From the NCBI GenBank assembly GCA_973895155.1, contig OZ316894.1, forward strand, positions 11,820,828 to 11,884,827: a stretch of DNA of 64,000 nucleotides. Reading direction: 5' to 3'. Within the stretch, counting starts at the first letter, position 1. Every line of letters starts with the position of its first letter. Positions 2,951-64,000 of the stretch are shown here, one piece after another. Origin of the DNA: Marsupella aquatica. Lineage: Eukaryota; Plantae; Marchantiophyta. The translations under genes were made by a program, and so were the position numbers. Under the pieces are notes generated by a model. The model worked only from the letters and a program-made list of their open reading frames with translations. It was not told the DNA's origin and did not search any database.

Positions 2951-30999
<28,049 letters not shown>

Positions 31000-33014: not shown

Positions 33015-33023
33015 CTCCCCTTT
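33015..33023 (-). other. Polypurine tract
   Basis: Minus strand AAAGGGGAG directly abuts the 3' LTR. Confidence 0.85.
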
Positions 33024-39601: not shown

Positions 39602-39708
39602 TGTTTGATGGTGATAATAATGGTATCAGTATAGTCTCGGTAATGGTACATATGGTGGTGCCGGGATGACCGGCTGATCCGGTCCTCCGGTCAAGGTAGA
39701 GTCTAACA
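39602..39708 (-). repeat. 5' LTR (107 bp)
   Basis: Direct repeat of 32908-33014, followed by TSD gttat. Confidence 0.97.
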
Positions 39709-41438
39709 GTTATCACGTTTTAGTATTGGGCCAGTGGTGGTGATTAAATGAGAGAATTTTATACATAATGATTTTTAGGCCTAAACTTGCAACCCAACTT
39801 TTGTTTTCTCTTTCACCTGATTGGCTTGATGATGGTCAATGGGAAGTTTGGGGGAATCCATTTTTTCTCATATTCATTTGGTAAGTGGGTCCCAACACTA
39901 CGTGATTAACACAATAATTTCAGCCAAATCTGCTTGAGACAACAAAATGATGGCTAAAAAGACTTTTTTGATGCATCTTAGGACGCTGATATGCCTTGTA
40001 GCACAAACACAACATCATAAAACCCCAAAAGAACAACTGGCGAACTTAAAGTAAGTTGTTTTAAAGTGTACACTTTTACGTTGATTATCAATCTTTGATC
40101 TCATTTGTCAATCTAAACAATCAGATGACACACATCATCCATCATCCTCTTTGTTAGCAAGTGATAGATTGAATGCATCAGTCTATCAGATTGAACAGCT
40201 AGTGTTAATCATTGTTTTTTGTTAAGTAGATGAATTAAATATAACAAAATATTTACGGACCCCACTAGAGGTCCCTTCCAAAATTCCTGGCACCACAGTG
40301 TGCCATGTCAACAACAACCGCAACAAACAAGACTCGTCGGTTTTGTGAATCAAACTTATAGTTTTCATTCGTGTTTGTGTCAATTTGGGTGTAAATTTTG
40401 GGATGCCGTGCCATAAAAAGAAAAGTAAAAACATTGGAAATGCAAAGAGCAAGACGGTTAAAACTGTCACTATGTAACCATTTTAGTTACATTTTCAATT
40501 TTAAAACTTAAATTCAAAGATTTATAAAAAGTATTTTTCATATAATAAATAATGACTAATAACTAACTTGATAACTTCCTTGTTAAACCGCAACTCCCGG
40601 TATGTAAGGACCTCTCGTATTGTACGGCCATTAATGCTGGGAAGAGCACATAGAAACCCAGGATCGGGGAGGAGGAATGGCTGGAATCTTGAAAGTTCAT
40701 CGAATTTTATACTCAAAAATATTTACTCATTCTCAAAACAAAAAAACACCCAGTCGTAGATCTCATTGAGATCTTTGTTTTGCACCCTAGATCGCCTTCT
40801 AGCATGGATGAATAAGATTTCCAAAGGCATTACAAAATGGATGGCAAAGATTGTAAAATCAACAAAATCGACGGCTAGGAAGGCTTGGATTTGTTTAATT
40901 TTTCATTTGAAAAATATTAACCCATTTGCTAAACGGACAGAACCCATCCATAGATCTATTTGAGATCTTTCTTTTGAGCCATAGATTGGCCGTTATGATG
41001 GACGGACGAGATTTCCGGAGATAAGAAATGGAGACGGCTCAGATCGACTCTTCCCCCTGATTTTATTAGCCAAGGGGTCCACGAACTAATTATTATAACC
41101 ATTTTATTTTACTTTGCAAAGAGACATGTCCATGGGGGGTCTGTAATTAAAGATTGAAGTCTCTCATCCTTTGTAAAAGTACTAGGGACACTAAAAATAC
41201 CTACTAATGCAACTGGGAATGCTGGTCACTAGGAAAACATTTTCAAATATTCTGCCAGCCAAGGGGAACAATATGAGTAAGGGAAGGAATCAATTTAAGT
41301 ACCACACGCAAGATAGCTATAACCTCAAGGTTTTCAAAGGCTACAATCTTATCCAAAAATCTGGGGAGTTGGCTAGGGGTTGAGTATTGCACACTGTCCT
41401 CTTCCCTTCCCAAGGGTACGTTTTGCCTTTATAACCCT

Positions 41439-41602
41439 GAGAGGTGTACGTGACAGACCCCCAAAATTGAAAGTATCACTTTATGGACCTCATGAGTGAT
41501 CCAGATAGTTTGATAGAATTGACTTCAATATATGTACCCAAAATCTCATGGGGTCCATCAAGTGACACTTTTCAATTTAGGGGTCCATCAATTACATCTC
41601 TC
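41439..41602. mobile_element. MITE-like foldback element with ~60-bp imperfect inverted arms
   Basis: Left arm gagaggtgtacgtgacagacccccaaaattgaaagtatcactttatggacctcatgag. Reverse complement of right arm gagagatgtaattgatggacccctaaattgaaaagtgtcacttgatggaccccatgag. Confidence 0.65.
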
Positions 41603-42502
41603 TTATAACTCTACTATGAACTCAGTTTTGCAATGTGTGCTTATGCGAGATCACCCACAGGGTCTGTGACAAAAAATCAGGTGCAAGCAAGTCCAAGGGC
41701 AGTCAGTACCACTCTGGCAGTATTGCTAGTCCAGGCACGATTCTGGCAAGTACTCAGGAGTTACTATAGTCCAGGCATTCAGTTGCCTATAAGGTCCTCA
41801 ACTTCAAAGTGTACTAACATAAGATCCCAATGTGCATTAAGGGCATGCTTCAAAGCGTTACAACCAAGTCTATGTCATGCTCATCACTAGGGTATGGGCG
41901 TTCCTTATATATTGACATGGTGACTCCCGAAACTGTGATTTCCAATGCCTTGCTTCTTCGACTACGGAGTCATTGTGGAACAGTGCTACTGGGCTGGGTG
42001 TAAGGGATTGATCAAGGGGTCTAAAGGATCAAGAGAGAGGGCTACCATCTTAGAGGGTTAAATCTAAAATGAGTGTATTAAGGAATATAAAGGGGTCTAC
42101 AGGATATAACAAGAGAGAGGGCCCCCCCTCCTTCTCTTCTCAGCCAAGGTATGGTATATGGGTGTGCAAGTGTTTGATGAAAGCCATGAGTCTGTACAGA
42201 ACTTGTATGAGAGGTTTCTTTACTTTCTTACTGTTCTCCCTCTAATCCCTACCCTAATAGGAGGTCTCAAATATGGATCTCTTCCTCTCTTCCGCGAGAT
42301 AGTGTTAGGTATTTATTCTTACGTCTAGGGTTACTATATGTAACCATAGACTTTAGGTTAACCATGGTCAAAGATATGTTAAGTTAACTAAATTACACAC
42401 CATATCCTAAGGTGTGTTTAATGTGCCCTCTGACTAGTGCCCAGGAAATGGGCAACTGCAAAAAATAACACAACAGAAGTGTGTGGGCTAGGCTCCGAGG
42501 GC

Positions 42503-43140
42503 ACATTTTTCAGCCGTGTCCATCTGAACCTCAACTCGGACTGCCGTGAGAGTGCCTGCGGATCATATTTGAGACCCACGTAAATCCTGTCAGGAGAAGA
42601 GGTTACCGGTGTGTAACCATTTCTACAGGGGCCTGCTATAATCATAATTTGGTGTCCTGAAAAGTTGAGCCGGTAGCCTCTTTTCGGGCAGGAGTTACGT
42701 ACGCTAATGCAGGGCAGGGCTGGGGTTATAGGCTGTAACCTGCTCCCGGAATATTCAAAGAAGCTTCCCGGCTGTCGTCGGTCAGTTTCTTTTCATATTC
42801 CGGAAGCAGGGTTACAGCCTAGTAACCTTGCGCCCAGACCTGCATTACCCTATACAGTTACAGCCTAGTAACCCTGCGCCCAGACCTGCATTACCCTATA
42901 CATTTTTGCCTGCATTACCCTATACATTTTTCAGCCGTGTCCGTCTAAACCTCAACTCGGACCGTCTGAACCTCAACTCGGGCGTCCGTGAGAGTGGCTG
43001 CCGATCATATTTGAGACCCCGTTCCGTATTTAAGTGCCCTCGGATCATATTTGACACCCCCTTCCCTATTTGAGGCATCTTTTGACAGCCCGTAATCCCA
43101 TCCAAGCCAAGCCAAGCCAAGTCAAGCCAAGCCAAGCCAC
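42503..43140. repeat. Local repeat cluster: ~75-bp dispersed duplication, short duplications and (CAAGC)n
   Basis: acatttttcagccgtgtcc.tct.aacctcaactcggac at ~42503 and ~42924. gttacagcctagtaacc.tgcgcccagacctgcattaccctataca twice (42811-42902). caagc repeats at ~43103-43138. Confidence 0.75.
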
Positions 43141-43277
43141 TCCATAGTTACTCATGGCTTCCAATTACTCGGACTGATTACTTTCACAGAAGCAGGACTT
43201 AAGTACTTAGAATCAGGTTGCCGAGTTTTGGTAGCTCGATGATAATCTAGACAACGCTATGATTATGTACAAAGCTG

Positions 43278-43358
43278 ACAGACTATGGAACGGCAAGAGA
43301 CGCTCACAGACTATGGAACAGCAAGATACGCTCACAGACTATGGAACAGCAAGAGACG
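43278..43358. repeat. 28-bp tandem repeat, ~3 copies
   Basis: acagactatggaac(g/a)gcaaga(g/t)acgctc three times. Confidence 0.88.
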
Positions 43359-44578
43359 GGCCTGCCTCTGCACGTTGTTTCAATTGAGTGAATAACGAAT
43401 CGCTGGTGTCTGGTCAGCGCGGGGGTCAGCGTGTTCATGAGCTCCAGCTCTCCAGACATTAGAGTGTCGTTCGTCCTGCTTCCCTCACAGCGCCTGCATT
43501 AACTCCCTTCTGGCCTAGCTTGCACCCACTCAGTCACTCACTATCCATCCTACTACAGTAGCTCCATCCGCCTCTTGATCGATCTCATCGAGCCAGCGAG
43601 CACGCAATGCGCTAGCTAGCTGGAGAGCGAGAGCGAGAGCTAGCTACGTCAACCTCGGAGACTACGGGAGACTACGACTGCGACCAGACTCCGAGTCAAG
43701 GCCGTTCAAACTGAAAGCAGGTAAAAAGGACCGAGATTGCATTCGAAAATGTGGATCGCGTATGGCGACGATCAGGAGCAATGCGAGAGTCACGAATTGC
43801 CCAGAGGTTTAGAGGTGCGCAGCGAGAGATTTCGGGGCCAGATCCAAGAGGAGGAGGATACTGTGAGCGTATTAGCAGCATCGGCTCCAAATGTCGCACT
43901 GTTCCGGCAGTCTGCGGGGAGGAGCAGCGGCGAGAGATATGGTACGCGGGAGCGCTCGTCCGGAAGAATGTTGTGCACAGCAAAGTCAACAACAACATTA
44001 ACAATACCGAGACAAAGACCAATCCGAGGGGGTGCAATACGACGTTCTTTGACTCGATCACCAAGCTTTTCGCGTCTAAAAGGCTTTCGCGGTTAAACTT
44101 ACTGTAGCATTCGACACTGGCGACAGAGTGCAGATTGCGGGACGTGCTGTTGTGTTGTAAGAAATTGGATTCGGACACTCTCATCGGTCTGAAGATTTGG
44201 GTGCACCTCTCACATAATCAGGCATGCACAGGCGCCGAACCCAATACTGCTGCGCCAACCGACTGACTGTAGCTAGCTAGCGTAATACTAGGAAACCAAG
44301 CTCCAATCAAATCTATCATGGTATTGTGTTGAAATTTGTTCAATTAAAGGACCATGAGACATTTTATTGAAGCTCCCCTAACCACGGACCCCAGAATTCG
44401 TAGTCTTGGCGGGAGTCTGCGTCCCCGGCAGATTAATTACCTGCACTCCCCAAATGTAGCTCCGTAGTGAACCAAACAATTGCAAACCCTTCGATCATAA
44501 TCTACGACGGGGCAGTGTTTACACTGAGCATATGCCTCTCTGATCAGTCAAGATCGGGGGCCCGAGCTTGGAGATAGA

Positions 44579-45919
44579 ATGTGCTATTCAAATGTGCTCC
44601 CTGGGCGCGGAGACAGCTTCCAGCAGAGCTATGACTTGAACTCGAAAAACGATTACAGACACATCAAGCACGAGGTAATGGACTGTCTGGTGACTACTCG
44701 ATCGTCCTATGAGATCACCACGGAGGGAGTGGAATTCGTCCTCAAGCAAAATAACTACGAGATGGACACGAGCCGCTTAGATCTTCTGTTCCGGACCAAG
44801 CAGTCGTCGATTGCCTCCGTGCGAGAGAAGCAGGTGTTCGTGATGGCACGTAGCAGCGCGGGGTATATCGTGGTGGCTTGTCGAGGGACGTTCTCGCTTT
44901 CGGATATCATTGCCGACGTCAAGCTGGCCAAGCTACCCGTGCCATTCGCCCAAGGGAGAGCTCAGATTGGGTTCGTGGAGCGAGCTATGGATATGCCTCT
45001 GGAGCTCTTTGTTTTGCTTCTCAGAGCACGTGAGAAGCTTATCTTCACAGGCCATTCCTTGGGAGGAGCTGTCACGGCTCTGACAGCCCTGAGGGTGCTC
45101 GAGGCCCTGGGGTCTGTGCCAGGACATTCCTTCATGCAAGAGCAAGTTCAGTGCATCACATTTGCCACAGCTCCGTTTGCGAATTTGGAGCTCGCAACAT
45201 ATGTGAACTCCAAGTACAAGAGTATATTCCATAACATCGTGTCCAAGCACGACGTGGTACCTCGGGCTCACAGTCTTGTCCCTCAATTCTTCTTCCCTGC
45301 GGCGAAGTGGGTGGTAGACAGGATGCACGCTAGGTGGGAGATACGGATGTGCAAGACTATGCTCGAGACCATGACTCAGATGTCCGTGGACAAGGCCGTG
45401 ACAAAGCTAGAGCAGAGGTTGCCATCGCTCTGGCCAGTGACATGGCTTTACAAATTCATTAAGGAATGCGCTGCGCATGATGAAGAGGCTCTCTTCTACA
45501 ACCATGTCGGCTATGTGCTCATGCTCGACCCTGACACCAAGGATCCGGAGTCCACTATAAGTATGGAGGATGACACCGAAAATTTGGGTTTGAACTTTTG
45601 CTTGGAAGACAAGAGCGTTTTGGAGATCTGCTACGAGCATGGATTGGGGAACTACTATTCGTGTCTTGTAAGAGGCTTGAGCGCCACCAAGGAAACCTCT
45701 GTAGCTTTTACCAGTCCATTTCAAAGACTAAATCCTGAGAATCTTCTCATGAATTATTACGCAGAGCTCATCAATGTCAAAGCCCGAGCAGCAGAAGCTA
45801 AGCGTATCTCTGTTAGAGACGGCCTTTCCACACAGCAGATTCTGAGGAATCCATCTCGGGCATGCCTCACTTATTTCAACCAATTTCTTATCAGAATTAC
45901 CGGCAACGACTTCCCGTGA
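44579..45919 (+). CDS. Class-3 lipase (alpha/beta hydrolase), 446 aa, uninterrupted ORF
   Basis: IVVACRGTFSLSDIIAD; nucleophile elbow IFTGHSLGGA; CITF; catalytic Asp in NIVSKHDVVP; candidate His in EHGLGNY. The start codon is uncertain and upstream exons are possible. Confidence 0.85.
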   Translation: MCYSNVLPGRGDSFQQSYDLNSKNDYRHIKHEVMDCLVTTRSSYEITTEGVEFVLKQNNYEMDTSRLDLLFRTKQSSIASVREKQVFVMARSSAGYIVVACRGTFSLSDIIADVKLAKLPVPFAQGRAQIGFVERAMDMPLELFVLLLRAREKLIFTGHSLGGAVTALTALRVLEALGSVPGHSFMQEQVQCITFATAPFANLELATYVNSKYKSIFHNIVSKHDVVPRAHSLVPQFFFPAAKWVVDRMHARWEIRMCKTMLETMTQMSVDKAVTKLEQRLPSLWPVTWLYKFIKECAAHDEEALFYNHVGYVLMLDPDTKDPESTISMEDDTENLGLNFCLEDKSVLEICYEHGLGNYYSCLVRGLSATKETSVAFTSPFQRLNPENLLMNYYAELINVKARAAEAKRISVRDGLSTQQILRNPSRACLTYFNQFLIRITGNDFP

Positions 45920-48882
45920 TTGTCAACGAATCCGCAATTTTCAATTTCATCAACTGGTGGCTGTATAATTAACTCTGTTCACATTGCCAGTTGAGTGAGC
46001 CTGTGCTGGGGGGGCCACTGCCTTTCCCAAGCCAATTCGATAAGGCAGCAATGCAATCACGTGCAAGCTATCTGTATTCAACTGCACGTAGGTAGCAAGC
46101 TTTCTGCAATTGCATTAAGGTCTTCTCCTGAAACCATAACTTTTCACGTAGCAAATGGGCTCCGGTATATATTCCCACAATCGGAGTTCCATTTTGCAGG
46201 CTTGCCAAGAATTGTGTCCTTTTGTGGACCCGTACGATAATTATGGACGGGTTTCAAACAAATCACAGCTGGATCAGCAGAATTTCAAGTTTGTTCCTAC
46301 AGTTCAGTAGCTTGCTAATGACCGGAACGGAACGCGTGAAAGTTTCAAACTCGAGTCCATAGGCCAGCATTGTACCAGCTATAGAGCATCATCGTTGTTT
46401 ATAATTAGTTTCCATGCACACTATCCGTGCTTATCTATCGCCACAATTCAGGAATCCAAGGTCTCGAGGGGACGACCGGAGTACAGGCTCGCTGAGCTTC
46501 CAGAGTGAATCCCGAAGACTTTTAGAAGTACAGTAGTCCCTGTTGGAGTTCATTGATGGCGGTCACCTTGCCGTCGTCTTAGTGTACTCTCTCTAGATCA
46601 ATATATCTAGAGAGTGCAGAATCAGCCACAGAATTGCTCATGCAAATTCTAACATGCTATAGAGCGGTTCTGATTGGGATCGTGTTAAGTGTAATATGGA
46701 AGCATCAAGATCGATCTGAACCAAATTGAGCAACAGCGGCTACATCACTATATTGTGCCAATTCTGGTTTTAAGATACCGCATACTTGTTTCATGGCTTT
46801 CAACGTAGCCGCAAAACCATGGAGATCGTGTTGTAATCTTTCTGGTGGAGCGCTTTGAATAGTCACTGAGAACAGTAGCAGCTGCATGTGTCTGCATGTG
46901 TCTGCATGTAGAAAAGTGGCTACCAGCACATATTGCAAAGTCTAACACATTCAAACGGCAAACAGGTACCTACTAGTTTTTCCAACAAGTTTACATTGCA
47001 CCGTAGCAGTTTGGTTCACCTTCAGGTCGTTCTTGTGTACTCTACATTGATCTAGAGATCGCAAACGCCACACAGGTACTAGATTTTTCATCGAGTTTAC
47101 GTAGTGCCGTAGCATTCATTTTCACTTGCACTAGTATAGTGACTGATCCCAGATTGGCTTATGCTTTGGAGAAAGTTGGGGACTCTAGTCCCACTTACAT
47201 AAGGACTCGAAGAAGATTGAGACACAACGAAACAGCGATGGAGAACTCACTCGGCTGAAGCGGAACTCCGGGAATGGAGCAATTATCTCGTGATCCCCTC
47301 GCATTTATTGCTCCCCAATGTGCCATGCTGGATTCTGAGTGTGAACAGCTGGGTGAGTCAGTGGGAAATCCTACTGTAGTGCACAGCTAGATTAACATTG
47401 CCCATTGCCGAGTTGCTAGCACAATACGTCAGCGTACAGGAAATAGCCTGGGAGGCGCCTATACAAATAACTAGTCGCACATGGTCAATGGTAGCCAGCC
47501 AATCTGTTGTAAATCTCTTCCGAGGCGTCGACGTACGGCATGCGTACGTGCATTTTCCATTTGCGTATTGAGTTTCGAAAATATTAAAGCTGCACACATC
47601 ATTATGGTCACCTCACAAGGACGAACGTCGGAGTCTGCTGGAACAGGTAGGTAGTTTATGAGCACTGGACACTGGCCACTGCTCACTTGCATGGACAGGG
47701 TCTGCATCATTCTGAACTTCTGAAGGAACCAGGCACAATCATGTTCAATAGCCATTGCCCACTTCATCAATACGTTTGGCAGTCCTCACTCCTCGCCGTT
47801 AATTTTCCAATTGAGCAAAATCGGGATTAGAAAAATTCGAATCACTCACAAGTAAGCCGGCCATGATGATTCTCCAGGGCTTGCATGCCTCACGAGTAGT
47901 GTCAATGTAAACTATCTAGCTAGACAAACTAATAACCAGGTCGGAGGGCTTTGGTCACAAGAAGAGTGGAAATCAGAAATATTCAATATGTAAAATCAAC
48001 CTTCGGATAATTGTTTTACATTACAATAAAATAAATTGTACGTGCCAAACAAAAAACTCCAATCGTAAAATGGCCAAATATGTTGCAGTGTCTCCCTCGT
48101 CCTCAACTACCATGGCTGTCAATTCCCTCACCGGCCGTTGCGTGTATTATTTGTACTGTGTACCATCCCGTCTCAGGAATCTCGCTGCAACGTTTTGAGC
48201 TACCTAAGGCTTACTTTGGGATACATATATACAAGTTTTGAAATCCCACCACTAATACTAGCTGATTTCACTTCACTTCTAGTCCGGTAAAAACAAGGTA
48301 AAAATGCAAATCCCTCGTCGATCATGGATTGACCACCGTCCAAGCTAGATCGACGTAACGGACGCTCAATGAAATCTCTGTGTGAATGAACCAGAAATCG
48401 TCTGCAATTTTCATCACGTTTGTTTATCTATTATTGCAAGGAAGAGCACATTCTCATTGTCTGCTCGCAACGAGTTCGTGACTAATAATAAGTCACAGTG
48501 TAATAGTAGTGGTAGTGACAGGCTAGCTCGCTCGGCGAGTGTGCTCTCGCCGATTACTTTATAGTCTGACGCGTACAAGCTCCTCGTTGCTCATTACTGT
48601 TGCTCATGACAACCAGTTTAATGTCAGTCAGGCAGGCACAATAACATAACTACATAAGGTCCCGTACTGTCGGCCTGCCACCAGACCAGCCAACTATCTT
48701 ACTGCCTGCAGGCCACAGGACGATAGAGGCATTTCGTAAATCAATCTGCTCTGCTCTACTCTGCTCTCACATCGACAGAATGATAGCTACTTTAGAGAGG
48801 CACGGTGCCGAAGCAGTCATGTCTATCTCTCGCTCCAAGTCCCGATTTCAGAGCTCGCAGCCGATAAAATGGCGTGTTGTGA

Positions 48883-49093
48883 ATGAGATTGAGAGACATA
48901 TATGAGGATGGAGTTTACTCTTCCCACAGTTCTACTGAAAAGATGGGATTGAAAAAATTGGAAGTCCATGTGACAGTGGATGAGATTGAGAGACATTTAT
49001 ACGAGGATGTAGTTTCCACTTCCCACATTTATACCCGGCATTTATACTGAAAAGATGGGATTGAGAAGGTTGGAAGTCCATGTGACAGTGGAG
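48883..49093. repeat. ~100-bp tandem duplication
   Basis: atgagattgagagacat...tactgaaaagatgggattga...ttggaagtccatgtgacagtgga twice. Confidence 0.85.
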
Positions 49094-49187
49094 GACAGGG
49101 AAGAGCTGAAGTGAACTTATTAGTCTATTTGTTCTGTGCTGGCTTGTCTCTTAATGGCCTTCGTGATTTCCCTCTGTAATTTTCAGG

Positions 49188-49498
49188 GCATTTATGGAGA
49201 AGAATGCTCGTTCAATATTTTGAACATTATTTAAAATCTCTTAAAAATTGCTTAGCCCTCTCACTTTATTATCCTATTATCACAACGTTATGGGCAACAA
49301 TAGCCCCTCAACGCATTTATGGAGAAGAATGCTCGTTCAATATTTTGAACATTATTTTTTCTTTATTTTTACTATATTAGTAAAAGTAAAAATTGGTTAG
49401 GCTTTTAACTTTGTCAACACAACATTATGGGCAACAATAACCACTCAAAACTCTAGCACACAACATTATCGGCAACAATAGCCCCTCAAAACTCTAGC
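49188..49498. repeat. Interleaved direct-repeat cluster, candidate transposon subterminal repeats
   Basis: gcatttatggagaagaatgctcgttcaatattttgaacattattt twice (~49188, ~49313). cacaac.ttat.ggcaacaata.cc.ctcaa three times. actatattagtaaaagtaaaaattggttag at ~49371 is repeated at ~50172. Confidence 0.75.
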
Positions 49499-50489
49499 CG
49501 AAGCTCTTTTTTTTTTGTTTTTTTTTGGGGGGGGCATCATGGCACACAATACCCTGTTTACTTTACTACATATATTAAGGTAGTCTGGGTGATTTCTAGT
49601 TTCTGGGTGCTTTAGACTGCCTCAGGCAAGCACTGCCATGATTATAACACATTAATTTAGACCATACAATTGACTGAACTATGTTCAGCTATGTGATCGG
49701 GGGCACAAAAAAGCCCCAATATACTTTTGTCAAAAATACATACGGATTGCAATATTGAACTTCAATACTGGACTTCTATACAGTTTCCTTGTTTTAAAGA
49801 GACCAACAAAATCCAATGTATTGCATACAGTATTTGTATTTCAAGGGCAAGATCATAATAGCTTAGAGATATATACTTCGTGGATCTCCAAATGCAACTT
49901 TTTCTCTTAATGGACCAAAAGTTGCACACGCCCTCCCAGTGGACCCCAACGTTTAGATTCTCTCCCAATGGACCTCCGGGCCCACTCCGTACAAGCATGT
50001 TCTTCTGAAATACCTTACCACACAGTTCAGGTCCACTACGTACCATGTGGACACCGTGGTTGGTCATGTGTAGTAGGCCATCGATAACGTCGCAGTCCAC
50101 AAGCGTCGTAGCCCTGGCCACAATCAAGTGCCGCAGCACCATGGCTTCCTAGTTTTTGTGAATACAATATGACTATATTAGTAAAAGTAAAAATTGGTTA
50201 GCCGCAATCTAGAACAATCAGAAGAATACAACATGGTCAATGTATTCACTCCACACATGCAATGACAGGTCGCGATTCTAGGTTGTGTATGCTTTGCTAG
50301 TTCATTGTTAGGGATGAGGGCACAATCATTTGCCCGTGTATGCCTTCTCTTTGGCGAGGGTTTAGGATTTTAGGGTGGCGGCCGATAGGAATGGTGATCA
50401 AGAGAGGAGGATTGTTTTAGGGATTTGACTATAATTGGAGACCAGGCAGCTCATAGACGGATCGAAGGCCTGTCGGGCTGGTGAAGGGA

Positions 50490-52450
50490 GACTGCAAAAT
50501 GAATGGGGACTGCCTGTCGGGAAATTTGGAGTGAGTGCAGAGTGATTCAGGGAGATCAACAAGTGCTTGCCTTGGTTGAGTTCAAAACTCACCATCTCTC
50601 GTCCCATAAAGAAACCACAAAAATTGAGCAGCACCAGTGGGAAGAAGACGGAAGGTGCATCATGGATTCGTTTGAGGTCTATTGCAAAGTTGAGATGGCA
50701 GATGACCAAGCAACGAAAGAAGAATCAGCTCAAGGAAGACTATTGTGTTTCAACTTTGGGGAAGAGTGAGCCATCTATCCCATCCAAATCAATCCTTGTT
50801 TGTCTGATTAAGGTGTTCGACATTCGAATCTAGGAGAAGAAGGGTTGGGGCTGCTTGGTAGACAAAAATTTCTTTGAGATGTTGGAGGAGCATGTGAGCT
50901 CTGCTCCTATCAACAATGTTGTCTATCACTAAGCCGAGCATGTGCAGCAGTTGCCTGTGGATCAAAAATTGCATGCTCTGCAAGTCGATTGTCAAGTATC
51001 ATAAGTACTTTTTCCAAAGAGAAATGTTGTTGCCCAGTCTGGCCAACCTTCAACAGGTGAAGAGAGTAGAGAAGTCGTTGTTGCAGACACCTCATGGGGT
51101 TTTTGAGGAAGAAGAGGGAAAGTTTGTTGTGGAAAGACTTGGGACCAAAAGAAATTGATTTTGACAATGCTTATCTAGACTATGTGAAGTGGAAGAAGGA
51201 GTAGAAGCATTTGTCAATTGCTATAGCTAGTAAAAATTGTGTGCAAGATTACAAAGTTGATGGCATGTCACAAGAAGAAGCATAGAACGTGGTACTACCA
51301 CATTCATTTTGCTTGCCTTTGCATTTTTGTGTATACTTCAAGCATAATGTTTACACTAGTTTTTATATTGCAGGCTGGAGTTCACAAAGTGTGGGTTGAT
51401 ACCTCAGATGAGGAGGGGTACGAGCCCACCCCTGACAAGTGGGGATTAGAGTATCATGAGTCCTCTGACAAAGAAGACGCAATGTTCAGAGGTATAGTTC
51501 CTCTTCCCCTTTTGCCAATCATTTTTTCTGAATCTGCAGAGTTTGAAAACATTGACCAGAATGTCTACCAAACTTCAGGTTCCTTTGAATGACAGAGCTC
51601 AAGCCAAAGAATCAGGGAAGAAAGGAAAGAAACCCAGGAAGCCAAAAGAACCCAAGAAGTAGCCTCCACAGACTGTTACGCCTCTTGTTGACACTCAGCA
51701 AGCCGATGAGGTAAAATTTGCACTTCCAATGTAAGTACCCTATTTGTATACCATGATATCAATGTATGCACGATGGTTTAGTGCTCTTAGCCCGAGTATT
51801 GCATTTTAGGTTCCTCCCAATAAAGGAGCAAAAGCCGACCAATCAAAGCGGAAAACAACAAAGAACCAAGAAATCTGCAGAGCCACATTTGCCCACGCCA
51901 AACGACAGCACCACCCTTCCTGCAGATTCTCAGCAAGCTGACCAGGTAACATTTAATGATCGAAGATCTTCTCAACATTTGTAAACATTGTGGGGAATGT
52001 TTTCTCTTTTATCAACACTACGAGTTCAAGAGTATGACATTATGTTGGGGTTGCATACCATGATTTTCATGTATACTTAATGTTTGAATGTGCTTGTACC
52101 CGAGTACTGCATTTTAGGTTCCTGAATCCAATGAAGGACCTAAACTCAACTAATCTAAGAGGAAATCAACAAGAACCAAGAAATTGGTACAACCAAAGAA
52201 GCCCGCGCCTGAGGTAACCATCTTTTCAGTAGGCCCGAGAGGAACATTCCACAGCAGACATAGTGATAAATGTATTCTATATGCAACAATACTTATTTGA
52301 TTTAAACATCCAATAACCTTTGCAATTACAGGTTCCAAAAGAAGGAGAGCAGGCAACGGCAACTGCAGAGACAGAAACAAGTCTTGTTAAACAAGTCCCC
52401 AACAGTTGCAGTTGGAGTCACATTGTCAACATGGTGTACCCAGCAACCGG
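50490..52450 (+). pseudogene. Decayed multi-exon gene of unknown function with a Lys/Pro/Glu-rich 3' part
   Basis: One frame reads WGLPVGKFGVSAE*FREINKCLPWLSS...VFDIRI*EKKGWGCLVDKNFFEMLEEHVSSAPINNVVYH*AEHVQQLP, broken by isolated stops. Later GT-AG exons at ~51374-51710, ~51810-51944 and ~52118-52213, with a duplicated intron-exon unit. Confidence 0.5.
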
Positions 52451-53059
52451 GTGAATTGTAAGTGTAATTTGTCACACCATTCTGAGTAGTGTAGTAGTAT
52501 ATCGTGCTATTAGAGTATGTACATTTGGTATGAGTGCTATTGGAGCCGATAAGGTTCCATCAGGTTTGTGTGAGAGGGTACTTCTCACTTGTGAGGCATT
52601 GAAAGGTCATCTTTCAATGTTGAGCCTTGGAGAGAGAGGAGCTTGAGTGTGGCTATGGTGGCTGTGAGCTCCGCTTGTGTAACGTGGATTCCTTGAGTAG
52701 TGCAAGGTGTGTTGGCTTGACATACGTGTGTGATCGGATCGGTGCGGGATCGATGGGGTATTGTTGACCGGGATCGTTGTGCCGATTGTATGGAGATTAT
52801 TGTGGGTTTTGGACATGTGTGGACATTAGTTCCACTTGTATTCTATTCTCTTGTGTTTGTGATGTGGCAGTGTGACTATGTTTGGATGTATGTGACAAGC
52901 GATGTATGTTGTGTAGCGATATGTATGCGCACGACAAATTTCTGATCCCTATATATAAGTTACTTCCAGTGCAATAAAACTATCTAAGCAAACTGCCATT
53001 AGTTATTAGTAGGCATCAAATATTTACTAATGGTATTATTGTTTTTTTGCTAGTAACAG

Positions 53060-53432
53060 ATGTCTACCCCACGAAATATGAAGATTGGCAGGACCCAAAT
53101 TCTATATTAGATTTGGTTGTGGTGGTACATGGAGTTATTGGTGAAGCAACGCGAGGAACCCGAACCCATAAGGAGTTGCTAGAATCAGGCATTATATTGT
53201 ATGATGCTTCTTATGTACCACCTTTGGGAAAAGGAAAGTTTGGGAAACTCATACCAATACCACTTCCTTCATTTGATGACCCATCATGGCCAATTCCCGA
53301 CATGAGTACTACTGAGTCCTTTCGTGCTAGACTCTTTTCTGACTTCCATATGGCAATGAAACCCAGCACATGTGGTCGTGTTTGTAGAATTAACTGGTTC
53401 ATGCCATTCCACATCATGATAGATCTATTTCA
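53060..53432 (+). pseudogene. Protein-like exon of unknown function, apparently truncated at its 3' end
   Basis: Acceptor-like aacag|ATGTC, then DVYPTKYEDWQDPNSILDLVVVVHGVIGEATRGTRTH...PIPLPSFDDPSWPIPDM...CRINWFMPFHIMIDLF. Composition suggests a globular domain. No family recognised. Confidence 0.5.
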
Positions 53433-56162
53433 TGTCCAAGTGGACATTGGAATGCGACAAACCATGAAAATCTTGGGATATTTTCAACATCATTTTCACA
53501 ATTACCAAAAACAACAAATCTATACTTAATTACAAACATAAAATTTACGGTCTTTGATCTGAGTTTGTGCAAACTCAAAATCTTAAGTAGAATGCCACTA
53601 TCCATTGTAGGTGTGCATCTAAGTCCACTAAATCTCTAACTACAATGCAACTCAACTAATCTAAGGCTTCTCTAACCTCCTCTCCACTTCTAGAAGATCC
53701 CCTTCCTATCCCCTTCCAATCCCCTTCCAATCCTTATCAATCCCATTCCAATCTCCCTTGCTCCCTCTCCCATCCTCCACTCGCTCCCCCTTCAATCCTT
53801 AGGTCTGCTCGATTGAGATCTAGCTCTCAAGCTCAATTTTTCACAAATTATCCCTGATCCTTTGTGGCTATCTCCCCTAATTGGAATCTGTCTCATTTAA
53901 TCAGAGTCTACCACAGCTAATTCAAGCAGCAGTCAATCACAGTAGAAGCTCATTCAATAACCAAATCTGAGAAATCAAAGTCCAACACTCAGGTGAAATC
54001 CAGCAATCAAAGCATCAACATCAAACCAGGAATTCAAAATTTCAGCTTCAGGATTTTGAAGGCGACAGCAGAGATTAGCAGTCGTTCCCAGACCATAAAT
54101 TAGGCCTGACCTCAATCAGCAGCTGATGACAGCACCTTGATGCGACTTGAGCTTAAGTGAGGGCCAATAGCCCTCTCCAGGCCGCAGCCTCCTTTGCCAT
54201 AGCCAATTGGCTACCCTCGCCCTTTGTAGGTCATTGAGCTTGCAACACAGTCTTTGCCCTTTGTATTTTGTCACAACCAGTTTTGGACTTCATGAATTCA
54301 TGAAGCTTTTGGTTTCTCAGTTTCCCAGGTGGTAGCCCCTTCATGAATTCATGAAAGAGAATAAGGTATCTTAGGGAGAGAATCTCCAGAATAGCCAAAA
54401 GAAAGACTTCAAAAGTGAAAGAAAAGGGGATAAAGACAAACCACTCAATCTCAAGAAATGCAAAAAAATGGTGAAATAAAAGCAAAAAGTGCTCCAAATG
54501 CCAATATTCCAAAAAGCATATGGAAACAGTAGGTCAACAAGACAAACTCTCCAATCATGAGTCATGGAAGTACATATCTTGGTGGGCAAAAACATATGGG
54601 TTTTTACTGGTGGGCAAAAACATATGGGTTTTTAATGCCAATGTTTATCCTCATGAAACGTGGGAATGCAAACCTAAAAATGATTTATTTCTCCAAGTAA
54701 ACTGGATTGCGTAGTCCAAACAATATTGTGAGATTAATAATTGAGCAATCTAGTAAAGGGAGGTATGGGGAAGGGAAAAGGCCCAAAGAAGCCCTAAGTT
54801 GCCCAACAAGCCAAAAAGTCGAAGGACTAAGATACCACCTAGTAGCCAAGAAGACTAATTAATAAAGTGTTGTGTCATAAAAAACTTTTGGAAATATAAT
54901 TTTTTCAACTTTTTCCTTGACTTGTTCATCTATGTCATGAAAGGATTGGCTTAATTATTGAAAAATGATTTAAGCATTTCTTATTCATTTAAATTAGAGA
55001 AAGGACCAATTAAGTACAAATAAGCGTCCTCTATTCATGAAAACATGTTATTTCATTTGTTTCAAGTTAAAGGATTTTTGCTCTTTTGTGTGTTTTGTCT
55101 ACATTAAGTTCTTCTCACTCATTTGAGAGCACTAGCCTCCCCGGGCGTTAAGTTCTATCCCATGTGGTTGAGACTAGTGTTAATTTGGGTGTCCGACTCA
55201 AGGGTCTTCAAGATAGTGGACAGTTGAGAAAGCGGACTCATGAATTCATGAAGACAGATTGTAACAAGTTTCTAAAAACACTAAGTCCTGTCTCAAAACC
55301 AGATTTTTGTGCATTTTGGAAAGGTCAAGCGTTGCAACAAGCACCAAGGGGAGAGAGTGAATATGGTCGTCTGACATCTCTCAAATTCCAGGAAGGTGTA
55401 AGAGCACTGACACAAGCGGGGACACAAGAAGACCTACTGAGGCTGCAAATAATTCCAGCAAGGAAAGGATCATCACAAGAAGGTCACCCGGGCACACTTG
55501 CATCATTTGGCTGAGATTGGAAGCCAATCAATATCAAGAAATTAACTTGAAGGGGAAGAATAAGAATTTGGAAGAGGTCCCCAAGAAGAGGTTGGGGGAG
55601 CCCAGTTGGGTCAATATGTTTGTGAAATTCAGATGTTGCCTAACAAATCAAACTCAGGCACGTTGAGAGCCAGGTTGAGAGTAAAAGAGGAGCCATTGAG
55701 TGATTTGATTTGGATCAAAATGGGTACATCTGGAAGCGTAGGTGCTGAATTTGTGGAGATATCATCTTCCATTGAAAAGTCTCCCTCAAGGAGTGAAGGG
55801 GCGCATGTTGGAGAGTCAAAAAGAGATCATAATTTATGAATTTGAATTTTTCCCAAGTCTAATGAATTATGGAGGTAATTTGATTGTTTGTTAAAAATAC
55901 AAATCATGTTTTGGTAAAAATTGCTAAAATGGCATAGTAAAATTATAGGTAGTAATTTTATCAAAAGTAAGTTGAGATCATTTTGTAATTAGGAGATGGT
56001 GAAAAAAGTGTCATTTTAATACTTTCAGTTTGTTTTATAATTTTGTCAAAAAACAGGTAGTATTTTTGGCCACTTTTTTGCCATTTTCTTTGTTTCTGCA
56101 ATTTTTTTACGAGAGTGCTTAGATTTTGGGCTTGTTACTCACCCTTTAAGGCTTCTTGTTCA
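53433..56162. mobile_element. ~2.7-kb non-coding block with TG...CA ends, possible solo or chimeric LTR
   Basis: Starts TGTCCAAG and ends CTTGTTCA (6/8 inverted match). The flanking coding sequences on both sides stop making sense at these points. No matching 5-bp TSD for these ends. Confidence 0.35.
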
Positions 56163-58484
56163 TGTAGTGGGTGATGTGGTGTTCACCAAAGGCTTCAATA
56201 TAAAGTCTACCCCAATTCTCAAATTTTCCTTTGAATGCCAACCTTTGTGAATCAGTCAAAGTCAGCCCAGTCAGGTAAGGTTGCAACTCCTCATAAGCTC
56301 TCCACATGCGCATTCGAGAAAGCTTTCCTTCTGGCCCGTTATGATGATCAGCTGTACATAAGTCCATCCAAAAAATTTCGTTTTGGGAATATGTACTCTT
56401 TTGGAATAATCTTGTGACATGAGCTCCATTCATGCTTGGTCTATTGGGGACACTACCAGTTGCTCCAGAAAGGTTTGGATCCTTGAATATTCTCACATTA
56501 CCTCCATGAACCCCAGCTGAGGACAAAGATTCTTCCATTTTCTCTATAGCTTTTGCTTGAGAAGGTTTGTTTTGCATGTTCCAAACATACATGAAATGCA
56601 GATGCAAAAATGTTTCCACAATTCGAACATTAGCATGCAAGGTGCAAATATGTACACGCTCCAATGGTATTGGGAGTATTGGGTCAAAATGTGTGTCTCC
56701 TGATGTTCCATGACTTGGTTCTGCTGGAAAAGATGTGGAGAACAATCCACCCTTCCATGAAGGTTGTTGACGTTCCTTACCGGCTCTTCTTGCAGCCATA
56801 TCACTCCCTAGTGCTTTTTTGCTTGACTTTTCTTGGAGACAATAGATGCAAGAGTGTTTAGCATTTGCACCATGTTGCAACCCATACATGCATTTTATTG
56901 TTTTCATATCTGCTGTCAAATGCCACTCCACTTTGTATTCTCCCATTCCTGGAACCTGTAATAATTTCCCTGCTTCCTGTGCTTGAATCACACTTGGAAA
57001 TGATGTTGTTCAAAATATGAATTTCAATTGCGCATGTGACTCCTTTGCCACCTCAAAGCATGCCACTGGCCAAATGTCACGATCTGATTGCACTGATCGA
57101 GAAGTATCGAGGGTCATCTTTCTGGATTGTCATATCCAAAGCCCTGTTCATAAGAGTAATTGAGACCCTTTCTAACTTTTGGTCTTTGACAATCTGTGCC
57201 TCATCCAATTTGAGGACAAATACTAGGGGACTTTCACCAATCTCCTCTTCAGTGACATTGTAAAAGCGAACCATGTTTTGTTGTACCACTTCAAGTTCAA
57301 CAAATAGTGAATTCTTGTCACTCAACATAATTCTCTTGGGCTTTGTTCCATCAGTGGTTTTGGACTTCTTTGCCTTTGGGGCATCTGGAAGCTCCATATG
57401 CAAGCTTTTGTACTCACCAATGAAGTGAACAAGGTTTGCATTATATTCAACCCGCAACTTAGACACTTGAGAGGAATTAGGAATAGCAGCAAGTTTCAAC
57501 CGTGGATGCACAAACTTGAAGCCATTTTTCAAAGTTTTACGGATAGCAGAAAAACCTTTCTGAGAAACACCAGTTTTATCACACACTGCCAACATACTAG
57601 TTGGCTGGATATGATCTCCAACTTCAGTCAAGATACTGTTTGTGGCCTCCACAATTGTTGTGGTCATGCTAGGTTGTTGCACCATGTACTCCTTCTCCTC
57701 TTTTGTCAACATCATTCTTTGCAAGTAACATAGCATTCTGTCTTTGTGCTTCAACATCTCCACAAACACAATGTTTCCCCCCACATATTGCATTATCCAT
57801 TTGAACCTCCTTTGAAGTCTTTGCTTGTAGTAGAGTTCGGACTTGACGTCTTAATCTTTTTGCATGCCCACCTGTTTGACTCAGATCTGACAAGTCTTTT
57901 CTTTTGCGAACATGCCCTTCTCGCAACAATTTATCATATTTTGTTCTCAAAGAAACAAGCTCTTTCTCTTTGTTTTGCAATGATGTTGTACATGCCAAAA
58001 CTGATTGCTGTAGGCTTGCTATTTGATCATGGTCAGATTGCAATGACTGTATTTTTTGTAGCAACTGAAGGTTCTCCACCCTCAGCTCAAGACTCACTTG
58101 CATAAAAAAAGCCCTGCCACTTTCTATGTTTTTGATGTTTGCCTCGTATTGCTTAGTAATAGTCATATTTGTTTTTGATAGGCTATGGGCATATCTATAG
58201 AATCCATTTTCTCCTTCACAAATATAAACTACAAGCTCCTTCCCCTCCTTCAAGGTTGTAAAGGGTGGTGGTGCATTTGTTCTTGGATCTTTAGGGTATA
58301 TAGCCCCATTTATCCACAGGTCTATGTTAGTAGCCCCCTCAACCCTTTTTTGGGGGAAATCAAATTTCTGTGTTTGCAAGTCAACATTGACCCCTCTTTT
58401 GATGAGGGGCGCATATTTTGGATCCACTGCAAACCGTATCTCATACGACTTGCCCCATTTGTTTGTAATGTCTTGCAAGGCCAT
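56146..58484 (-). pseudogene. RAG1/Transib-like DDE transposase, frameshifted and C-terminally truncated
   Basis: Joining ORFs 58484-57669, 57793-57077 and 56991-56146 (frameshifts at ~57720-57780 and ~57097, stop at 57010-57012) gives, in RAG1 order: RKRKDLSDLSQTGGHAKRLRR; IQPTSMLAVCDKTGVSQKGFSAIRKTLK; FVLKLDEAQ; SVQSDRDIWPVACFEVAKESHAQL; LTADMKTIKCMYGLQHGANAKHSCIYC; ICTLHANVRI; FGEHHITHYM. Confidence 0.8.
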
Positions 58485-59571
58485 GACTCTGCATTTTAAG
58501 AGATGGTCATAATGGGAAAAAAATCAATCTCATTTATTGATACAACTTAGAGTTCACGCTTTATGCTTAGAGCCTTTATTTAATTTACTAATTTGAAAGG
58601 AATTCTATCCAACGTTGCTAAAACCACATATCCCCGTGGCACAGCCTACTTACATATATGTACTAATGAGGGACATATATTCCTAGTTACACACTTTACT
58701 TCCATTTACTAATCAGGGCACTCACTGATTGAATGGACTCCACTTGTGAAAATAACACTTGAATTCCTTGGCACTCCTCTTGTATGTTCGCCATCACCGT
58801 CTGTCACCAACCCATATTGTCTCTCAATCCACGTACTTGGAGACGCATACATATCAGGTATAAACATCCAAGTCAAGAATGTGTATCTAAAGTATATAAC
58901 TATTGTTTCCAGAAACAAATAGCAGAATTGATTCCTTCAGCGTTACCGCCCTCATTCTCAATGAGGTTTGTGTCCATCATGATTGCTCGCTGTTACCCGA
59001 TTGTTCTTCTTCTTCTCACCTTTGGGTTTACCAAGATTGGCCTCAAAGCTGAATCTTAGCCATAAGGTTCAAACCTGAATTCTTAGACATAATTTTAAGC
59101 TGAAATCTTAGCAATAAGAAGCACACAACGTACAAGATAGCTTTCCGTTAGCGTCTCTCACAGGGAGCTCTCGTTGGATGTCCTCGTCAAAAGGAGTTTT
59201 GCTATGAATTTTGTATGTACATATATAGAGTACAAGAGTTTTGGTTTGAATCCGCATACCAAGGAGTTCTTCTCATGGAAAAGCTCGAGAAATCCTAGTC
59301 CTTGCTTGTAGTAAGGAGGTTGAGAATTGCACAGAGGGAAGAGTCGATATAAAGAGTGACATTGTGCACAAAGAGTTTGCTTGGCCTGTGACAGATGAGG
59401 TATTCTATTGTGCGAGCAAACAGGAGTTTTGCTAGCGAGGACAGCAGGCTAGCGAGGCAAGTTTGCGCGTAATTTGAGGGTAGTTAAGGCGCATTCCCAA
59501 GTAAGATTGTCAATATATACTGTGAAACAGTTAAGGAAAACGAAAATGCAGATACTTAAATATTCACAAAC

Positions 59572-62500
59572 TCAAAAATCGAGATCTTCACTACACTGAA
59601 TTGAATGAAAAGGCATCATCACTGTCAACAAAACCAGGTCAAAAAACCTTTCACAATCCATCTTTAATAAAACTTTGGTATGACAAATATCTTCTGGAAT
59701 GAGATTGCATCTGAAATTGACCATGAGTCCTTGAGAATCCTCTGATTCCAAATCATCTGAGGAATTACTAGGATCGCTACTGGACTCCCTATCAGTCTCC
59801 TCAGCCGAACCGTCAACATACTGTGCTACAGTCCCAGCCTCATCATCTATGAACTGAGGGCAGTAAAGGGCTTTCCGAACACCCCTCACTGACCGCAGAC
59901 CTTTCCCCTCCCAAGTCAAAACGACGGGCGCTTCATCAACCTCCTTTGCAGTCTTTTCAGCATAGCATGGAAGCGCAAATCCCTTGTCAGGGGTCACAAG
60001 AAAATGATCCTCGATTTCTTTCCGAAGACGGAATCTCTCCTCCGAAAACCAATCCGAACGCCTATCACTGAAGAAATCACCAGAATCGGATCAATACTAA
60101 ACATCCGAAAATTCTACAAACAAAAGAAAAACACCAAATAGGGAGTTCTACATCAAAGGCCAAGTGCTTTACTCCAGGTCGAATTCATCCTTCTCGTCTG
60201 AAGGTCCTCCTTGATCATCTCCTGGGATGGTGAACTCATCATCAGACCCTTCATCTTTGGGATCATCGTTCTTCGGGTCTGCGGCCCCTTTCAACTTCTG
60301 GGCATGTCTATCCAACACATTTGCCAAAGTTCTTTGTGCACACAGATGAAGAATGTCTTGATCTTCAACACCCACAACAAATCTCCCAGCGTATTCCCCA
60401 GCGGCAAAAGCACTTCCATCTCCAACAGTCCAGTCAATGACAATGTCCTTTGGCAAAGTAAGGATCTCCATTACGGCTTGCATGAACCCAACTGACAATC
60501 TATTGGAACCTGCGAAAGCCGCCCTGGGACTGGGATCAGTTTTTGGGTAGCAAACACTCAACATCGATTTATGGCGGGCATCCTCCGAGGAAGTCATTGG
60601 AACATATCCTGTATGTTTCGGGACTTTTGCCGAGAATTCCACCTTGCAGAAGACATCCATAATGAGAGTAACCACCTGAATTGAAAACGATAATACGTAA
60701 GAAATGGGAACTTTTGGTTAGCGAGCTCGCTAGCAAAAATTGCACAAAAAATATGGAGGATATCTTACCTCGATGTCCATATCTGCCTGATACAAAGGAG
60801 ATGAAAGCAAAACCGAATACTGCCGGACATGTTTAAATTTGTTCTTCTGTTCGACTGCAGAAAAAATTTGCCTCATATGGTTATAGTCAGAGCTGTGAAG
60901 AACTGCGACATAACCATCGTCGGCAAGCATCGGACGCATGACTCCAAAGAAATAATATGGTAATTTCTCACTCCAAACATTCCACTTCGGGACCTCCCGG
61001 TCTGTGACGCTTGTTCGATGACCCGTGGGAAGGAATATGAAACCCAAGTGAGCACCAATTCCAGCGTAATTTTTTCCGTTGATCATCACGGCGTTTGGGT
61101 GTTCGCTCGATTTGCTCATTCCAGACAACCACTGATCCGCATCGCCCATCCAGGGAGGTCTTACTTTCCTCTGGCTAATTGAGTTTGCAGTTTCCGTGAG
61201 ATTGCTCTTTGCCAAGAAATGCCTCTCACCATCCTTCTTAAGACCACACATTCGTGCTACTCCTTGCGCGACGCATGCTTCCTCCTCATCCGAGTCGGAG
61301 AGAATTTGGACATTGCGCTTCCTCTTTAAACGCTTGATTGAACCCAGGTCCACAGCAGATTTTGTTGTGACCTCAACATCAGGAGACTTGGGTTCTTCTC
61401 CATCATCCGCCCCACTCTTCAAACTGCCAGAGGCTGCAGCCTTTCTCTTCTCTGAAAAACATGTTAATGTCAGACAGGTGACTGAGACAAAATTACTCCG
61501 AATGAGGTATGAAAAAAAGAGGAGAAAAAGACTTACTTTGCTTCCCAGACAAGACTGATCCATCTTTGGACGTGTCCTTCACCGGCACTTTCCGAGGTCT
61601 CCTCGATCTACTCCGGTCCACAATGGTAGCTACACCAAGAACAGCTTTCTCCATTGCATCACATCCGCCAGCCTCGGCTTCTGCAGGAGCTAATTTGGAC
61701 TCTGTAATGTACGACTCTGGTATCAAGCCTCGATTTATCATATGAAATGCTGCCTTCTCTGCTGTGTCAAATGTCATTGCCCATTTGTCTGATTCTAAAT
61801 ACCATGGACAGTGAAGGACTTCCCACTCACTCATCTTCCTTGGAGCCTCCACTCCCTCACATGGGTACATCGAGTACTCTCCATATTTAACAAAGGTTGG
61901 ATCCTCTTTCACTCCTGCTATCCAAGGCGAGAAGCAAGCAGGATAGGACCACCAATATGTTTTGTCAGCAACTTCTCTATCCACAAAAAAATGATACGTA
62001 TATCTCTTCGCCCTCCTCCAAAAAAGTGAGATGTCAATCTTCTCACCCAACTTTGGTGGCCAAATCTGTTTGAAAAAACGAGATTTCACTCTCGTTTGGA
62101 AATCTTCAAAGTCCTCCTCTATGTCAAGGATCAGCGATGGCTTTGTCTTCTCAGACGAAGTAAGGATCCTTGCATCTGGAACAGTTGGGATCAACTCTGA
62201 AATAATCTCAGACATGAGCGAAGAACAAATTGACTCAACCTGCTCCCAAACAGCCCATCAGTGAAGCCAAAGTTTTGTTTCGCTGTCCGAGAATTGACCA
62301 GGGTGGAAGTACTTCTTGCGAAGCTCAGGTCTGCATTGTGCCTCGAGGAGTACACATCTGAGCTGGGGAGTCAACGATGAGACACCCGTAAATAGCCTCG
62401 CACGATCGAGACCACATGACACATTACCCCTTCCTTTATCGTCTGTTCGTTGGGCCTCCTTCCTCTCATGTTCGCAGTAGTTGTGCATCTCAACACACTT

Positions 62501-63693
62501 CTGGAAAAAGTCACCAAACTCAGGATTTAGGAGAGGTCCAATCTTTGGCACCTTCACATTCCAATCTGCCAGTTGCTCCTTCATCATGTCTTTGACTGCC
62601 ATGTCTTGCGCAGCTTTTGAAAGAGGTTCTCCTTGCGCTTCTTTCAACTGAAACTTCTTCTTCAAATCTTCCGTCTGCGCTGCAATATTAGCAGTAGACA
62701 GAATGTACGTGCAGGCATCGAGTGTCATGTTCTTCGAATACCAAGCCGGTTTCCTGATATTTGCCATCTTCTGCTGGAAAAGTTTGTAGTTGTCTGCATC
62801 GATGATATCTTTGTATACAGAAAGGTCATTACTGAGAACCTTGTGGACTCTCTCTGCTTCAAGGACCCAAGAATTCTCAACGTGACATTGAGTCAACCTG
62901 AGCAAAAGAAACAGGTCAGCGAGATCGCTAACAAGAGGAAATGAAAGAATTTTATATACAATTCACAGCTTGAAGGAAAAGAAACAAACCTATTCAGTGC
63001 ATGCATTGCCGACTCAATCTGCACGAATGAGTTCTTGTCACCCTTGAAAATTCGACAAACAACTCGAGGATGATATTTGACATCATGGGGATTCTCGTCC
63101 GCAAGCTGCATCCATGAGTACAGACGATGATTTCCATCGAAAACACAGAACATTTTGTCTTTCAAAATTTTGAAAGCTTCGTGAGAATCACATTCCCTCT
63201 CGAATTCTTCATTCTGAAGAATCCACATGTCATCCCACGACTCCCGAATCACATCCTCGCACATCTGGACAAGGCCATCTTCGCCGGTCATTTGGACATA
63301 AAATCGAGGCGCATCTTCGATGTATCCCTGCGTCCGGAATTCATTCTTGAGTGTCTCGATCGCAGTCGAGTTAGTTTGTAAGGACCGAACGATCTGCATG
63401 TTTCGCATTCTACAAAGGGGAATCCTCGGAGGAGCGAGCGGGAATCCAAATTTGTCATTTCCAAAAGGGAAAAGATGGCGATTGATGACAACAGAATAGG
63501 GTTCTGAAGCTCCAAGTTGAAACGTAGGATTCACAACATCTACTTGGTTCACCATCTTGGGCCTCCTCGGTGTTTTCAATCCCGCCTGGAGCGCCTTCTT
63601 GTTCACTGTAGACCTGGTCTCCCTTCGGCTTGACTCGACTGACTTGAACGATCCTATTGATGACAAGCTCTCGGGTGAAGACAATGGCTCCAT
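59572..63693 (-). pseudogene. Spliced gene for a ParB/Srx-like domain fused to a beta-class N4C/N6A DNA methyltransferase-like domain, with one premature stop
   Basis: Exons 63693-62990, 62897-61537, 61451-60769 and 60675-60169 (or 60675-60173 plus 60067-59572) join in frame through GT-AG introns of 92, 85, 93 and 105 nt. In-frame TGA at 62258-62260. ParB-like IPLCRM...IETLKNEFRTQGY...CVFDGNHRLYSW. MTase-like MRPMLADDGYVAVLH and ILTLPKDIVIDWTVGDGSAFAAGEYAGRFVVGVE. Confidence 0.78.
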
Positions 63694-64000
63694 CAGGGGG
63701 TCCGTGAAGTGATAAGGGTATCAACAGGTCAAGGTCGAGGGCAACACGCTTTGCGAACATAAAAACACCCGAGAATCGATCTTCCAATCAAAGACATAAT
63801 CGTACCCTCGTCTGTTGCTTTCACCTGAATGCTGCGCCCGGTCGTGAAAAGAGATACAAATATTCTGTACGACTCTTCTCGCAATCATTTTTCAGACAAC
63901 GTCAGGTATACATGTACTTCCGGAAATACGAACCACCGAACTCACGACTGAAAGAAAAGTATCTAATGACAATGAGATAGGTGTCCAGTACTATACCGTA

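Follow-up and report, generated by a model that had tools for sequence, protein, structure and literature searches.

DNA transposons that carry a protein with ParB-like and DNA methyltransferase (MTase) domains have already been described, in Ectocarpus (Sola1-1, PMC12477816) and in red and green algae. The authors of the work on the Ectocarpus element Sola1-1_Ec32 propose that the cargo protein binds and marks the element itself (PMC12477816). In red algae, CMCT transposons of the Plavaka type carry the accessory genes PAG2 and PAG3, which encode MTase and ParB domains; tandem inverted repeats adjoin the ParB gene, and this cargo moves between transposon superfamilies (bioRxiv 10.1101/2025.02.11.637652). 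The CMCT clade, as set out in the accessible text of PMC12730594, comprises EnSpm/CACTA, Mirage, Chapaev, Transib, Plavaka, ESTA, Lanisha and RAG1. The TSD and TIR features of Transib are given in PMC1131882 (in part), plant assemblies have already yielded 39 Transib-like proteins (PMC9435367), and a moss lineage, Lanisha, belongs to the CMCT clade (PMC8245031, in part). ParB-HTH MTase fusions are known from chlorophytes and chytrids, and inactive MTase domains from DIRS1 elements (PMC4738411, in part). In the literature outside Repbase and subscription journals, descriptions of ParB-MTase cargo were found in algal papers only, and none from a land plant.

The DNA analysed here (the window, which means the whole stretch of 64,000 nucleotides) contains a ParB-MTase gene which, by description, is like that of Sola1-1_Ec32: a protein of ~1100 amino acids with ParB-like and N4C/N6A-type MTase domains, in the window within a probable DNA transposon. 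The Ectocarpus element differs: its host is a brown alga, its Sola1 transposase lies on the other strand and its termini are AACCG (PMC12477816), whereas the edge sequence in the window is different and the host is a probable land plant. In PAG2 and PAG3 the ParB domain is joined to a 2OG oxygenase, and the MTase, encoded by a different gene, to SET, whereas the window has one ParB-MTase protein. Marchantia, where 4mC has been shown, likewise offers a prokaryote-type amino-MTase in a liverwort, DN4MT1, but there the enzymes are encoded by host genes, carry the canonical TSPPY motif and have demonstrated activity, and the accessible text of the preprint makes no mention of ParB (bioRxiv 10.1101/2021.02.12.428880). 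A further likeness is to the Starships, giant mobile elements of fungi that have DUF3723 as conserved cargo: by language-model features, DUF3723 clusters are the nearest named ones to the ParB-like domain. Starships are, however, fungal and driven by a tyrosine recombinase, and no MTase fusion is reported in the accessible part of PMC9156397.

Results

Setting of the two genes

The features discussed below are as follows.

53778 to 56162, no strand: separate, moderately repeated sequence, adjoining the transposase gene where its final intron should start
56161 to 58484, minus strand: low-copy, broken, 3'-truncated transposase gene of predicted CMCT-clade (RAG1-fold) type, from homologs, motifs and the fold of a homolog core
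59394 to 59467, no strand: conserved edge of the high-copy ParB-MTase element, whose plus strand begins (G)AGGTATTC, from bin depth
59575 to 60090, minus strand: acidic stop-free stretch of 172 codons within the high-depth block, with no Pfam match
60169 to 63693, minus strand: ParB-MTase gene, four exons, 1084 codons, one premature TGA, from the gene model, homology to Riccia P0273 and P0032, and depth
60334 to 61104, minus strand: MTase-like domain in exons 3 and 4, from PF01555 matches, all under Pfam's curated cut-off
60719 to 60732, no strand: perfect 14-bp palindrome TAGCGAGCTCGCTA in intron 3
62990 to 63693, minus strand: exon 1, encoding a ParB/Srx-like domain in which PLCR and DGNHR are conserved, from relatives and motifs

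Both genes lie on the minus strand in the same orientation, as an earlier note on this DNA had claimed, and ~1.7 kb separates the ParB-MTase stop (60169) from the transposase ATG (58484). The window further contains a spliced SNF2-family host gene, a lipase gene and a Copia element, and a repeat tract begins at ~49.5 kb. The SNF2-family gene has a very long exon (25900-30834) made up of tandem repeats of ~52-55 residues. The Copia element (32908-39708) is young, with one intact frame of 1556 codons and LTR copies (at 32908 and 39602) that are 99% identical, and tandem repeats of 36-41 bp lie immediately outside its LTR (32388-32673). In the repeat tract, a very high-depth repeat at 52471-52937, bounded by TGT...ACA and flanked by a duplicated AATT, resembles a solo LTR, and many divergent loose ends fall at 52936; a stop-free frame of 183 codons on the plus strand (52978-53529) had no Pfam match.

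The ParB-MTase gene and its relatives

The gene was modelled with minus-strand exons at 63693-62990, 62897-61537, 61451-60769 and 60675-60169, separated by three GT-AG introns of 92, 85 and 93 nt, and its sole in-frame TGA is codon 448 (62260-62258). Seven splice combinations left a single stop, with introns 1 and 3 common to all, and the model with the longest frame was chosen. Exon 1 retrieved 224 related clusters (E<=0.001), and its PLCR and DGNHR motifs are kept across 32 sequences. In the ESM Atlas, which compares language-model features, the homolog P0032 scored 0.95-0.96 with DUF3723 and 0.91 with ParB_N; sequence searches of Pfam and the PDB with the ParB-like domain gave weak DndB and DUF1015 matches or none, and no ParB chain was found in the PDB searches. 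The plant ParB-like domain (P0032 residues 140-330) is closest to fungal DUF3723, the conserved Starship cargo, and we found no paper naming DUF3723 together with ParB.

The MTase-like domain matched PF01555 at E 0.032 in the window exon, 0.0023 and 0.0077 in the metagenome loci L012 and L034, and 9e-6 to 5e-5 in three Riccia homologs (5e-5 in the full-length P0273), all of these under the curated cut-off. The ESM Atlas scores for this part (0.79-0.83) are a lead only; the PDB sequence searches gave only a weak match to a putative modification methylase (2zie, E 2.2), and no homologs were found when the region of exon 3 was the query. Within the domain, FLPTG (motif IV-like, ~61035) stands before DWTVGDG (motif I-like), an order that we take to be that of the beta-class. 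The acidic stretch at 59575-60090 is possibly an extra 3' exon or the remnant of a second gene. The spliced fusion of a ParB-like and an amino-MTase-like part, as first proposed from the letters of the window, is thus supported by the four-exon minus-strand model, by the ParB_N score of P0032 and by the PF01555 match of P0273.

Relatives of the gene are full-length in the liverwort Riccia sorocarpa and partial in Adiantum ferns, so the host is probably a seed-free land plant. The window protein aligned with Riccia P0273 over residues 38-1036 (E 1e-68 and 3e-18, identity 26-28%), and in the Riccia annotation the family is multi-copy and often fragmentary. A ParB exon followed by MTase exons was found in 11 of 80 metagenome ParB-family loci (7 distinct sites), and the related ParB-MTase loci are decayed. 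Exact-pattern scans of viral and prokaryotic contigs found neither this family nor that of the transposase, a result still compatible with a prokaryotic origin. Four of the ParB-MTase sites (L063; L065/L070; L066-L069; L075) share a degenerate gene of ~2.8 kb, usually convergent with the cargo gene (the L075 copy lies at 6900-9700 on the minus strand), which had no informative Pfam match and could be the transposase of those elements. At L052 and L053 an 85-bp tandem repeat lies on either side of the ParB gene.

The predicted RAG1-fold transposase gene

The transposase gene has its ATG at 58484, frame breaks near 57,800 and 57,090, and a stop at 57,010-57,012, and its homology ends abruptly at 56161, where the moderately repeated sequence adjoins (56161/56162). 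In the two full-length homologs, P0180 and P0187, a final exon carries H-x4-H and a QGMERSH segment with the probable third catalytic residue; nothing in the window matches this exon. The earlier note described both genes as having a few disabling mutations; the transposase is in addition truncated.

We found 169 proteins homologous to the transposase, and the 13 that were scanned had no informative Pfam match. An alignment of 80 rows has the second catalytic D in every row and CxxC in 78-79; CTLH is nearly invariant, and KLDE and DxK are conserved as well. The modelled core of a homolog (pLDDT 80.5) matched RAG1 with Z 12.9 and rmsd 3.8 over 300 aligned residues, ahead of BbRAGL (Z 12.0), HzTransib (9.1), the P element (6.5) and Hermes (6.2), and Foldseek gave E 1.4e-6 for the same model; a single-sequence fold of P0001 had a pLDDT of 34. 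The family is like the CMCT transposases in its D..D..E core, its RAG1-like fold and its motifs C(2)C and H(3-4)H (PMC12730594, in part), but has no sequence-level match to the RAG1 or HzTransib chains of the PDB or to any Pfam transposase family; profiles of 58 and of 80 sequences found no RAG1 or Transib chain in the PDB at E<=10. From the motifs and the modelled fold, we place the predicted transposase in the CMCT clade and not specifically in Transib; the placement is no finer than CMCT-type because the motifs define the whole clade. Of the label RAG1/Transib-like given to it in the earlier note, the RAG1-fold core stands, while Transib is too narrow, since the support extends only to membership of the CMCT clade.

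With Transib and RAGL elements (PMC1131882, in part; PMC9435367) the transposase shares the catalytic-core fold, but no RAG2-like partner, TIR pair or 5-bp TSD was found around the truncated window copy. The TIR search gave chance-level matches only. For a CACAATG at 59366 on the minus strand, 40001-56300 offers no convincing partner, though this copy has lost its 3' end, and no Pfam match to a RAG2-like gene was found in the six frames of 49500-56200 or in the scanned window ORFs around this truncated copy. By description, the moss lineage Lanisha is the obvious candidate for the lineage of the transposase.

Repeat level, CpG content and co-occurrence

Four of six public sequencing runs (X1 to X6) contain ~70% of the sampled words, and X1 holds long, near-identical transposase contigs (708, 619 and 508 nt, each differing at 0-1 positions), which shows that the source organism is present in that run. 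Summed contig depth, which is not a copy number and of which only the ratio and the step were used, was 29,000-119,000 over 59749-64000 in X1 against 113-366 over 56545-59214 (~350-fold on bin means), and 5,600-15,900 against 19-185 in X2 (~100-fold on bin means), transposase copies of <80% nucleotide identity falling outside the count. X5 and X6 cover the ParB-MTase gene and barely the transposase, and uncovered parts were not counted as evidence. The adjoining sequence at 53778-56162, which had no Pfam match, has an X1 depth of ~1,100-2,400 and is matched by one X6 contig that then runs on into different letters.

The step in depth separates the bin that ends at 59393 from the one that starts at 59394 in 4/4 runs (X1/X3/X4/X6), with depths of 93/96/49/0.04 to the left, 57413/21337/2557/974 in the edge bin and 4714/2027/766/63 in the next. 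Because this first bin is deeper than the next, by 3- to 15-fold, we read the edge as a conserved terminus of the ParB-MTase element, which is likely to lie at ~59398 and starts without CA. Flank-carrying contigs end at 59397 in X1 and X3, a weak hint. Speaking against a terminus here, no cluster of loose ends stood at 59398 among the 24 of 321 that were listed. The element runs past the end of the window, and its other terminus lies outside it. The high repeat level and the conserved edge favour the idea that the ParB-MTase gene is transposon cargo.

The two genes also differ in CpG content, with C followed by G at 24/530 positions in the transposase and 132/900 in the ParB-MTase gene (Fisher p=4e-10). 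When 120 transposase homologs and their profile were compared with the 80 ParB-family loci (339 kb), there were matches in none, while 78 of 80 control copies degraded at random were recovered by the profile; the loci are distant relatives (27-44% identity), and just 13 of them, at 7-8 distinct sites, are at least 9 kb long. The single element with both genes that the earlier note had proposed does not agree with these results: the repeat level is unequal, the high-repeat block ends between the genes, and the transposase is near none of the ParB-family loci. The results fit the independent occurrence of the genes that the note had itself named as refuting its proposal.

Catalytic motif and palindromes

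Active amino-MTases have a motif IV of the type (D/N/S)PP(Y/F/W). This canonical form is absent from the window copy, the Riccia homologs, L012 and L034: the window copy has FLPTG, with F for D, and its relatives have DLPTG, DMPSG or DYPEN (DLPT and DMPS in Riccia, DYPE in L012, DIPE in L034). Catalysis by the family is doubtful, because motif IV is non-canonical throughout and F replaces D in the window copy. That the predicted SAM-binding domain adds 4mC or 6mA is a possibility that we lean against rather than for, since the canonical PP-aromatic residues are missing family-wide; the domain may instead be a non-catalytic DNA-binding module.

At L066 (12468-12813) and L074 (2906-3378), tandem arrays of 51-bp units with the palindrome TTCAACTTT-N7-AAAGTTGAA lie between the ParB and MTase exons; by analogy these arrays could be parS-like, and in Bostrychia inverted-repeat arrays adjoin ParB genes. 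In the window element no such array occurs. Its 14-bp palindrome TAGCGAGCTCGCTA recurs as a variant in intron 1 (62917-62930) and as half-sites within the conserved end (59432-59456), and is a weak candidate for a self-binding site of the cargo protein; the motif was picked post hoc and overlaps likely branch points.

Discussion

The window holds two decayed genes, with a step in repeat level between them and a marked difference in CpG content. We consider it quite likely that they are the remnants of two independent DNA transposons lying side by side, a high-copy ParB-MTase element and an older, low-copy, truncated RAG1-fold transposase gene, and the pairing is probably a chance adjacency. 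The ParB-MTase element would move by cut-and-paste, relying on a transposase that is either encoded past position 64000 or provided in trans, and would have inserted just upstream of a dead transposase gene. For the cargo protein we favour self-recognition, in line with what has been suggested for the algal elements: its ParB-like domain probably binds palindromes in the element's own DNA and would help the element to remain active or evade silencing.

The two genes share an orientation and are separated by just 1.7 kb, the red algal Plavaka elements, also CMCT, carry ParB and MTase cargo, and non-autonomous families are common among giant algal transposons. All of this would suit one RAG1-fold transposon family carrying the ParB-MTase gene, with the window copy as a rare autonomous or ancestral member and the others as deletion derivatives or served by a diverged transposase paralog. 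Such a family is nevertheless improbable: a conserved, deeper edge stands between the genes, the CpG contrast is strong, the transposase is in 0/80 ParB loci, and the edge lacks the CA typical of CMCT termini (PMC12730594, in part). Still less credible, to the point of being very improbable, is that the ParB-MTase gene belongs to a host gene family or is an amplified pseudogene. Its introns and the lack of a transposase in the high-copy block within the window would fit a host gene, but not the very high repeat level, the sharp conserved end and the many diverged variants, nor the multiple, often fragmentary Riccia copies and the decay of related loci.

There is also some chance, which we regard as minor but real, that the pair or either gene is a family already described from mosses or liverworts, such as the CMCT-clade Lanisha of Ceratodon. 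Lanisha shares the motifs C(2)C and H(3-4)H (PMC12730594, in part) and is an abundant moss repeat (PMC8245031, in part). Against it, the main texts of the Ceratodon papers give no gene description, and the preprint makes no mention of ParB, RAG1 or methyltransferase; moreover, even with a Lanisha-like transposase, the depth step between the genes stands. ParB-MTase cargo in transposons is already in print (PMC12477816), but we found no land-plant description. On our preferred reading of two separate remnants, the new part is modest, a high-copy land-plant version of a ParB-MTase cargo element whose own transposase is outside the window or absent.

ParB-MTase cargo, known from algae, also forms a mobile gene family in seed-free land plants, among them Riccia and Adiantum, where it is abundant and contains introns. 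A wider proposal, which we put forward tentatively and think unlikely as a whole, is that seed-free plants (liverworts, ferns and relatives) host abundant DNA transposons whose spliced ParB-MTase protein clamps palindromes within the element and marks these with 4mC or 6mA, shielding the element from 5mC silencing. In its boldest version, which is improbable, the carrier would be an undescribed RAG1-fold lineage. The ParB-MTase element keeps its CpGs, and the neighbouring transposase has lost them. The family of 169 proteins with a predicted RAG1 fold may add a branch to the CMCT clade, unless it is Lanisha. With 4mC already known in Marchantia, the idea that these elements mark themselves against silencing becomes testable in tractable plants.
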